Origin: Shigella phage phiSD1
Sequence record: PQ571306
Reading direction: 5' to 3' (one strand)
DNA length: 42,072 nt
Part shown: positions 33,880-34,202 of the stretch, piece after piece
Numbering within the stretch: position 1 is the first letter of the stretch
Layout of the letters: each line of letters opens with the position of its first letter
Program-made: the position numbers and the translations under genes
Notes under the pieces: generated by a model
The model's database searches: none
Seen by the model: the letters and a program-made list of their open reading frames with translations, nothing else
What the model was told of the DNA's origin: nothing

Positions 33880-33950
33880 CGCAAACTATTTGTTTATGTA
33901 TTCCGGTTATTCCACTCAATTGTAAATGTTGGAATAAACTATTCGAATAG

Positions 33951-33979
33951 TTGACTTTTCACCAAAAATGTGCTAAGCT
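33951..33979 (+). promoter_or_regulatory. Sigma70-type promoter TTGACT-N17-TAAGCT
   Basis: Consensus -35, 17-nt spacer, weaker -10. Confidence 0.45.
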
Positions 33980-33985
33980 CCACCT

Positions 33986-34186
33986 GAGCTTGTGAAGTAT
34001 GAACAAGCGACCGCGGCGTGGCAGGTAACGGAGCCGGACGTTAAGTCCGAGTGTAGTTACGCTGACGCGTTCGGAAGGGCCATACTCTATTGCTTGTGTA
34101 AAAAGTAACTGGTTTACTGAGATTACGCCGTTTCTATGTTTAAATGATAAGGACTAGCGCCCCGCTTTATGGCGGGGCTTTACTTA
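33986..34186 (+). ncRNA. Candidate structured leader RNA / small RNA ending in an intrinsic terminator
   Basis: About 200 nt without an ORF over 9 codons, several hairpins, terminator gccccgc-tttatg-gcggggc at 34159-34186. Confidence 0.3.
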
Positions 34187-34202
34187 TCGAGAAAGGAGAA
34201 AC

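Follow-up and report, generated by a model that had tools for sequence, protein, structure and literature searches.

Several well-described bacteriophage leaders act on the translation start of the gene that follows them. Early transcripts of the T4 lysozyme gene e and of soc are untranslatable, their translation starts being masked by an upstream leader segment, and the start of the Mu mom gene is masked by a hairpin that is opened by Com. The lambda N leader, about 220 nt long, has small promoter-proximal hairpins and a large hairpin at the ribosome-binding site (RBS), which is cut by RNase III; such cleavage, as at the inter-gene RNase III sites of T7, leaves hairpin-protected ends. Outside phages, the primary transcripts of the type I toxin mRNAs dinQ (PMC5066626), tisB, and hok are translationally inert: structure at the 5' end closes the RBS until the RNA is processed, and a standby site comes into play. 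Here, we describe a structured leader that precedes the spanin genes of Shigella phage phiSD1 (sequence record PQ571306). The whole stretch analysed, 42,072 nucleotides (nt) and hereafter the window, is a complete Kagunavirus-like siphophage genome of the subfamily Guernseyvirinae.

The leader comprises about 215 nt of non-coding, folded sequence, from a predicted transcription start to the ATG of the inner-membrane spanin gene (i-spanin) at position 34203. An earlier note, made from the letters of the window, had proposed here a promoter-proximal structured leader ending in an intrinsic terminator and serving as a regulatory small RNA (sRNA), an attenuator, or a cis-acting antitermination RNA. 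The proposal of a structured regulatory leader is strongly supported by covariation across relatives: the leader is a genuine, conserved structured RNA that had not been described before; its family is new, its kind familiar. As to function, we favour, with a little more confidence than doubt, a cis-acting 5' untranslated region (UTR) that would tune the start of spanin translation, stabilise the late mRNA, and, in one sequence type, cause partial termination. The literature found on these phages consists of in-silico promoter and terminator lists; it yielded no description of this leader, no transcriptome study, and no report of leader-mediated control of spanin synthesis.

Distribution and sequence types

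Homologous leaders are present in approximately 450 Guernseyvirinae genomes and fall into two sequence types, K (the type of the window) and J. The K type was recovered by blastn in 182 phage records, including Salmonella jerseyviruses, with at least 90% identity in 181 of the 182. The J type, present in 269 records, is carried by the classical jerseyviruses Jersey, SE2, SETP3, SETP7, and wksl3. Sequence identity between the two types is about 60%, and the blocks that they share are ACCGCGG(C/U)G, ACGC(G/A)UUCGGAAGGGCC, CUAUUGCUU, AGAUU(A)CGCCGU, AUGUUUA, and the RBS.

Two further types occupy the same location and are strongly folded, namely type C (phages FSL SP-031, phiEap-2, pink, and Hafnia TS33) and type Z (vB_STM-ZS and Pantoea AH01; folding z -4.4). 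Their leaders contain a 5' hairpin, a long hairpin capped by GUAA, and two covarying hairpins directly before the RBS, with no U-tract, and the 3'-terminal 110 nt show 76-96% conservation across phages of Salmonella, Enterobacter, and Hafnia. In our sequence set (handles beginning with L), these leaders lie at 1200-1500 in L087, at about 430-805 in L220, L221, L223, and L224, and at about 480-822 in L222.

IMG/VR, metagenomes, and bacterial genomes were scanned with a two-block pattern for further leader types. These scans returned copies of K and J and chance matches only, hence no new type; they added K variants, including the divergent L003, L029, and L180, the last being a second L029-like variant from a metagenome. 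Bacterial genomes contained nothing leader-like besides a J-type leader (94% identity) on L289, the 738-bp scaffold48 of Taishania pollutisoli in a Flavobacteriia assembly, which is most likely phage contamination of that assembly. The spanin loci of Klebsiella VLCpiS11a and Kp4885-1 and of dhillonvirus HK578 were also examined and have no comparable leader. Against Rfam 15, the whole window gave 0 matches at the gathering score, and 33700-34800, searched at E up to 10, gave chance-level matches only (at most 16.4 bits); no transfer RNA or transfer-messenger RNA genes were detected.

Secondary structure and covariation

Independent minimum-free-energy folds of the K and J leaders arrive at the same plan, in which two hairpins (P1 and P2) are followed by a long composite hairpin (D4). 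The elements of the window are as follows:

33988-34008, + strand: P1, 5'-terminal hairpin GCUUGU-N9-ACAAGC (-7.2 kcal/mol, z -3.3)
34011-34074, + strand: P2, 64-nt irregular hairpin (-31.8 kcal/mol, z -3.4)
34072-34081, + strand: conserved block CGGAAGGGCC, kept in leader types K, J, and C
34082-34118, + strand: D3, variable linker after the single-stranded GGAAGGGCC block, containing the conserved CUAUUGCUU
34119-34212, + strand: D4, 94-nt composite hairpin (-33.1 kcal/mol, z -4.9 in K; -26.3 kcal/mol, z -2.3 in J)
34119-34158, + strand: D4 5' arm, with AGAUU.CG, GUUUCU, UUU, GAUAAG, and UAG in this order, pairing with 34179-34210
34159-34178, + strand: D4 apex, GC hairpin GCCCCGCU-UUAU-GGCGGGGC, the terminator of the earlier note
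34179-34212, + strand: D4 3' arm, with UUUA, CUUAUC, the Shine-Dalgarno (SD) region AAA, AGAAAC, the start-codon UG, and AAUCU, from folds and alignment
34203-34589, + strand: i-spanin gene, from the list of open reading frames (ORFs) and the Rz-like spanin annotation of relatives

Folded as a whole, the 199 nt of the leader give z -2.7 on the + strand and z -1.3, no better than shuffles, on the - strand. That the structure belongs to the + strand RNA is likewise indicated by numerous G-U pairs and by substitutions that turn A-U into G-U or U-A into U-G.

Covariance models were built from K sequences only, R1 for D4 and R2 for P1-P2. Both locate the J leaders at the homologous position, with E values from 1e-6 to 3e-4, and R2 detects P1-P2 only once in the genome. 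Paired positions were counted against controls in which the partners were slid. For P1-P2 within K, aligned by plain MAFFT and thus independently of structure, 96.4% of cells are paired (28-39% when slid), 4 pairs are altered on both sides (0-1 when slid), and the covariation score is 0.117 (at most 0.043 when slid). Pair counts are inflated in the combined K and J alignments because these were fitted to the model structure; with R2, 95.8% of P1-P2 cells are then paired against 28-39%, with 14 pairs altered on both sides against 1-3 and a score of 0.30 against at most 0.05. For D4, fitted by R1 in an alignment that includes two off-target rows, the corresponding values are 97.8% against 38-56%, 15 pairs against 3-5, and 0.21 against at most 0.05. 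Covariation supports P1, P2, and D4, and the fold is, at the level of sequence comparison, established. The earlier note had itself named covariance analysis across related phages as a check on its idea, with a lack of structural covariation among the outcomes that would refute it, and structural covariation is what this analysis found.

P1 begins 2-3 nt 3' of the predicted start. It is the hairpin that the earlier note wrote as GCTTGT-N11-ACAAGC; the stem is present, but its loop is N9. In J, the hairpin reads TACGCT-TTC-AGCGTA (UACGCU/AGCGUA as RNA), in L029 it takes an 8-bp form, GCTTGTGA-GTTA-TCGCAAGC, and four of its six pairs are altered on both sides in the K and J alignment. P2 consists of an outer helix (P2a: CCG.GGCG(U/C)G with ACGCGUU.CGG), a middle helix (P2b: CAGGUAAC with GUUAC(G)CUG in K and UCGCG/CGCGA instead in J), and an apex (P2c). 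The apex in the window, CGGAC-GUUAA-GUCCG at 34035-34049, is as the earlier note gave it; most K leaders have GGGAC-GUAA-GUCCU, L003 and L029 have GGUGC/GCACU, and J leaders have GGGCGU/ACGCCC or GGGCGC/GCGCCC. Changes legible by eye in P2 are C-G to U-A in P2a, U-A to G-C in P2b (L029), and two apex pairs.

The CGGAAGGGCC block is single-stranded in every fold save for its first CGG, and it is purine-rich and Shine-Dalgarno-like; we conjecture that it may be a ribosome standby or protein-binding site. In K, the D3 linker forms a small hairpin, AGUAA-CUGGU-UUACU, and it is 10 nt shorter in L029, L180, and J. The 5' arm of P1, GCUUGUG (33988-33994), recurs in D3 at 34092-34098, and both copies read GCUUUCAG in J.

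Three alternative pairings were considered and set aside. A helix of ACAAGC with the second GCUUGU (P1') is limited to K, where it needs P1 to be blocked; J does not form it. From K alone, RNAalifold predicted a long-range helix joining the 5' end to CAUACUC, which is broken in four to five variants and absent in J. A CGGCG/CGCCG pairing is possible in K and J, but no informative variation bears on it. Among the candidates checked, no mutually exclusive aptamer and expression-platform pairings were found to be kept in both K and J.

Pairing of the leader with the spanin start

The SD sequence of the i-spanin gene, GGAG at 34195-98, lies with its GG in an internal loop of D4, and the start codon at 34203 lies inside the D4 3' arm. 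From the tip downwards, GAUAAG (34146-51) pairs with CUUAUC (34183-88); UUU of the 5' arm pairs with AAA immediately 5' of the SD; GUUUCU (34130-35) pairs with AGAAAC (34197-202), a segment made up of the final two bases of the SD and the spacer before the AUG; and AGAUU.CG (34120-27) pairs with the start-codon UG and with AAUCU of spanin codons 2-3. The helices that would mask the start region (GUUUCU/AGAAAC, UUU/AAA, and AGAUU.CG/UG.AAUCU) were found to covary.

The 5' arm is almost invariant, even in divergent K variants. Between K and J, both sides change from GAUAAG/CUUAUC to UAUACG/CGUAUA (including G-C to U-A and A-U to C-G) and from GUUUCU/AGAAAC to GUAU/AUAC (including U-A to A-U). 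At the apex, compensatory changes run from C-G to U-A (L164 and L026), from C-G to G-C (J), and from G-C to A-U (L043), and in L032 and L213 a deletion and two substitutions remove the mismatches beside the tip, leaving a perfect 17-bp helix. Sequence comparison thus establishes that the leader arm and the spanin start covary.

Exchange of the neighbouring genes points the same way. The Salmonella phages SETP13, LSPA1, and FSL SP-101 have leaders 90-100% identical to that of the window in a sliding comparison, except for one 79% segment spanning an indel, and identity falls to 52-65% in their neighbouring spanin gene blocks. In SETP13 and LSPA1, where a K leader stands before a different spanin, identity with the window drops abruptly after codon 5 (about 34217), just beyond the D4 3' arm. 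The two arms of D4 therefore travel together, and the selected partner of the invariant arm is on the same transcript.

These observations bear directly on the sRNA of the earlier note. Such a molecule would be a stable, trans-acting RNA of approximately 195 nt, with P1 as its 5' cap and the GC hairpin as its 3' end, and with host or phage mRNAs, possibly including the spanin start, as targets. It would have its own conserved promoter, hairpins at both ends like those known to stabilise sRNAs, and conserved unpaired blocks (CGGAAGGGCC, CUAUUGCUU, and AGAUUACGCCGU), and termination would leave the D4 5' arm unpaired and free for pairing in trans. Yet the leader arm covaries with bases that lie beyond the hairpin on its 3' side, which locates the selected partner on the same transcript, and the conserved block reaches spanin codon 5. 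Moreover, J, C, and Z lack a U-rich 3' tail, and nothing similar was found elsewhere in the genome or, the one probable contaminant contig aside, in bacterial genomes. A free-standing sRNA as the main role is therefore improbable in our estimation.

The terminator-like tip of D4

The GC terminator reported in the earlier note exists as a hairpin (GCCCCGC-tttatg-GCGGGGC, 34159-34178, with tail TTTACTTATC), of eight pairs, seven of them G-C, at -16.5 kcal/mol. This terminator-like hairpin is the tip of D4, and its tail is weak. In K, the tail UUUACUUAUC offers three U followed by A and C (U-tract UUUACUUAU), and it passes a loose terminator scan; in J, the tail UUAGCGUAUA has no U-tract and is not called by the scan; and in C and Z, the hairpins before the RBS end in CGAGGGG or CGCAGGGG with no U run. 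On a terminator score of the d'Aubenton-Carafa type, K reaches +17 and J only -3. With a U-tract that is weak in K and absent in J, C, and Z, termination is not the conserved function, although the K-type tip and UUUACUUAU probably terminate a fraction of transcripts.

The attenuator or antitermination element envisaged in the earlier note would have most transcripts end at 34178-34186, with late read-through brought about by a phage factor or by the leader RNA itself in the manner of put. In form, the layout (promoter, about 195 nt, GC hairpin, lysis genes) matches that of the lambda late leader; the K hairpin reaches the +17 just mentioned; P1 and P2 lie directly 3' of the promoter, as put stem-loops do; and other same-strand terminators in the late gene block (31506-31525 and 33293-33313) make read-through control plausible. 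Against this stand the weak or missing U-tract, the conservation of the GC hairpin as the tip of a longer helix, and the finding of no conserved pairing, common to K and J, that would compete with the hairpin as an antiterminator. P1-P2 has no second copy in the genome according to R2 and no Rfam match, and the annotation of the close relative Bas70 lists two small helix-turn-helix (HTH) regulators and no Q- or N-like antiterminator, although no protein search was made. Such control is conceivable for K alone, and we regard it as a distinctly unlikely account of the leader.

A second long GC-tipped hairpin, GGGCAGGC-TTAA-GGCCTGCCC with complementary A/T-rich flanks, is located at 21173-21253 (36471-36550 in L002). 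It scores a weak 23-29 bits with the D4 model and looks like an early-region bidirectional terminator.

Promoter and operator-like repeats

Two elements precede the leader:

33898-33950, + strand: operator-like direct repeats and palindromes 5' of the leader promoter
33951-33979, + strand: extended -10 sigma-70 promoter (-35 TTGACT, 33951-33956; TGc, 33971-73; -10 TAAGCT, 33974-33979)

The promoter TTGACT-N17-TAAGCT proposed in the earlier note is confirmed and can be refined. Its 17-nt spacer consists of 14 nt and TGC, which makes it an extended -10 promoter, and among 39 distinct K variants the -35, TG, and -10 are invariant while four spacer positions vary. The J equivalent, TAGACT-N14-TGC-TACGCT, differs in spacer sequence and keeps the spacing; type C has TGGACT-N14-TGA-TAACCT, and Hafnia TS33 has TTTACT-N14-TGA-TAACCT. 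A simple consensus scan misses this promoter, since the -10 agrees with the consensus at only three of six positions; by chance, roughly three promoter-like sites in every 2.5 kb are expected from that scan. Its credibility comes from conservation, which the comparison establishes for the promoter elements; by consensus alone it is unremarkable. Transcription would start near 33986.

The operator-like region comprises direct repeats GTATTCC and GTTATTCC (33898-33913), a palindrome GGAATA-aac-TATTC (33931-33944), and an overlapping palindrome CTATTC|GAATAG (33939-33950) that abuts the -35. Counted with at most one mismatch, GGAATANNNTATTC occurs 8 times in the window, where 0.46 occurrences are expected. 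In leader types J and C, the order is again TTATTCC repeats, GGAATA-N3-TATTC, 6 nt, and the -35. A second GGAATA-N3-TATTC palindrome occurs at 34708-34727, directly after the outer-membrane spanin (o-spanin) stop and before the scaffold gene; it abuts TTGACA, with no recognisable -10 there.

A different repeat, TGAATAGT-N3/4-CTATTAT, with an AATAG/CTATT palindrome between -35 and -10, forms seven promoter/operator copies (113-144, 12140-12180, 15727-15751, 17843-17867, 17887-17911, 21311-21335, and 33853-33884). The 'phage promoters' of fBC-Eco01 match this repeat and are attributed in that paper to a phage RNA polymerase (PMC9825357). No RNA polymerase gene was seen in the annotation of the relative Bas70. 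A 71-codon Cro/XRE-like HTH ORF at 17932-18147, beside two of the copies, is a candidate binder of the seven-copy repeat. Another HTH protein, of 67 aa, is encoded at 20694-20897.

Inside the K arm of D4 lies a sigma-70-like sequence, TTTACT-N16-TATGTT (34113-34140), which is annotated in fBC-Eco01 by PHIRE. An internal promoter within D4, on the model of T4 gene e, was considered and rejected: the sequence is not conserved, its -35 is deleted in L029, and J has no counterpart.

Small open reading frames

The earlier note had seen no ORF of more than nine codons in the leader. This holds for ATG starts only, a 38-codon GTG ORF being present at 33992-34108; there is also a 20-codon ATG ORF at 34144-34206. 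The latter crosses D4, its TGA overlaps the spanin ATG (ATGA), and no SD precedes it; it is not conserved in J, in which the frame stops after eight codons.

At the place of the GTG ORF, relatives (fBC-Eco01, Bas70, and others) have a 36-codon ATG ORF annotated as a hypothetical protein, and the conservation of the leader could in principle reflect this small protein. The frame is open in most K variants, as expected of a sequence that scarcely varies; in J, the conserved block is spanned by a GTG ORF of that frame, with the peptide AFGRA..YC common to both types; and several records annotate the gene. The frame is nevertheless shifted in L003, L015 (phage Golestan), and L029, whose indels L180 shares, and in the window and four relatives the ATG frame is lost after nine codons, so that a GTG start is needed and the N-terminus differs. 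Substitutions by codon position number 18/20/14 in K and 4/6/6 in J, with no third-position excess; replacements are radical (L to G and A to P); neither the ATG nor the GTG start has an SD before it; and the paired double changes are accounted for by the RNA helices. Judged by these patterns, which establish the absence of coding constraint, the 36-38-codon ORF is non-coding, and a small protein gene is barely credible.

Proposed function and its alternatives

In the reading that we favour, transcription would start at about 33986 from the extended -10 sigma-70 promoter, flanked by operator-like GGAATA/TATTCC repeats, and the RNA folds as P1, P2, and D4. The lower helices of D4 pair the leader arm (34119-34158) with the SD-flanking bases, the SD-AUG spacer, the start UG, and codons 2-3, and by this pairing the leader would act in cis on the spanin translation start. 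The most likely effect of D4 is to hold spanin translation down, or to gate it, in comparison with that of the downstream scaffold and capsid genes, into which the spanin mRNA probably continues. P1 and the stable hairpins likely shield the untranslated stretch from 5'-end-dependent decay and from Rho, and in type K the tip hairpin with UUUACUUAU probably adds partial termination.

Several points weigh against this reading. The predicted masking is only moderate, about 10 kcal/mol: opening -14 to +8 at the spanin start costs 10.0 kcal/mol, which ranks 26th among 79 ORF starts (genome median 8.5), so that translational masking alone is no outlier. The consensus fold of C and Z has two hairpins before the RBS, with the SD in the loop of a small hairpin and no long masking helix, and universal masking is thus unsupported. 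The roles of P2 and of the CGGAAGGGCC block are unexplained by the model. Finally, the fitting of the combined alignments and the off-target rows in that of D4 affect the counts given above, and independent events are few, most double changes tracing to the split between K and J and to one divergent K lineage (L003, L029, and L180).

Given the moderate masking and the folds of C and Z, a processing or stability element is a serious rival. D4, and perhaps P2, would then be RNase III-type sites at which cleavage would release the leader and leave ends shielded by hairpins, and the pairing with the spanin start would be incidental or secondary. With 33 pairs and small internal loops in D4 and about 23 pairs in P2, both are long enough, and stable covarying hairpins before the RBS are the one feature common to all four leader types. 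What this explanation leaves unaccounted for is a helix that extends into the coding sequence and covaries within it, and on the whole we consider it unlikely, if worth keeping in view.

An RNA switch of a new class, in which P1, P2, and CGGAAGGGCC would bind a phage or host protein or a small ligand and so decide D4 closure (and, in K, termination), seems to us improbable. Were it true, the switch would control both the disruption of the outer membrane and the passage of transcription into the scaffold and capsid genes, and about 500 sequenced Guernseyvirinae phages would carry a checkpoint on lysis timing or late expression.

Under the favoured cis-acting UTR, the leader would point to post-transcriptional control of spanin synthesis, a lysis step. 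Whatever its function, the leader is an RNA element that is conserved, has a defined secondary structure, and lacks an Rfam entry; its description corrects a recurrent mis-annotation as a 36-38-codon 'hypothetical protein' and a 'terminator'. The module, bounded by the promoter and spanin codon 5, is to be respected in engineering these phages, and a set of compensatory mutants for reporters follows from its helices. Guernseyvirinae (Kagunavirus, Jerseyvirus, and Cornellvirus) rank with the most frequent phage isolates in work on therapy and food safety.

Genomic context

The closest records over the region are Escherichia phages BUCT823, SZH-1, and HSE2 (98.6-99.6% identity). An exact repeat of 141 nt occupies both ends of the window (1-141 = 41932-42072); the phage genome is therefore complete and circularly permuted, and the repeat is an overlap left by assembly. 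The leader occupies a 374-nt intergenic stretch between a - strand cassette on the left and the + strand spanins on the right, the second of which is:

34435-34698, + strand: o-spanin gene, overlapping the i-spanin gene; GTG start, signal peptide with lipobox LASC, Rz-like in relatives

Its frame is open from the GTG at 34435 and gives a typical lipoprotein signal (…LLTMLASC); several relatives annotate just the last 47-48 codons, without that signal. The scaffold and major capsid genes come after the spanins on the + strand. The cassette on the left (33386-33828, - strand) is moron-like, with a 33-codon hydrophobic membrane peptide and a 114-codon lipoprotein (lipobox LSGC), and its transcription points away from the leader. 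Other relatives hold different small genes at this position, and J-type phages hold none.

Comparison with described systems

By sequence, as far as the comparisons reach, the leader belongs to none of the systems with which we compared it; the likenesses are of layout. It resembles lambda pR'-6S-tR' in its sigma-70 promoter, untranslated transcript of approximately 195 nt, and GC hairpin, followed by lysis and then morphogenesis genes. It differs in that its U-tract is weak (and missing from J, C, and Z), no Q homologue is annotated in relatives, and its hairpin is the tip of a longer helix reaching the spanin coding sequence. The put RNA of HK022, a cis-acting and factor-independent antiterminator, likewise has stem-loops immediately after the promoter; here, however, no second copy of P1-P2 stands behind other promoters of the phage genome.

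Riboswitch-type leaders share with it a conserved 5' domain followed by a hairpin that mixes terminator-like and RBS-pairing features. In contrast to them, no conserved mutually exclusive pairing was found in the spanin leader; it has no Rfam match, and P2, a long and simple hairpin, contains few unpaired bases that are conserved. As in dinQ, tisB, and hok, the gene of a small membrane protein has a structured 5' UTR with its RBS in a helix, and by analogy the upstream, single-stranded, purine-rich CGGAAGGGCC could be a standby site; the spanin leader, however, is without an antisense or sRNA partner, and the spanin is not a toxin of that kind.

With T4 e and soc, Mu mom, and the lambda N leader, it has in common a long untranslated leader segment that pairs with the SD or AUG of a late or lysis-related phage gene. 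It is set apart from them by the lack of any sequence or Rfam relation, by masking that is moderate, and by its target gene, a spanin. The closest layout is that of the lambda N leader, with its length of about 220 nt, its small hairpins near the promoter, and its large hairpin at the RBS.

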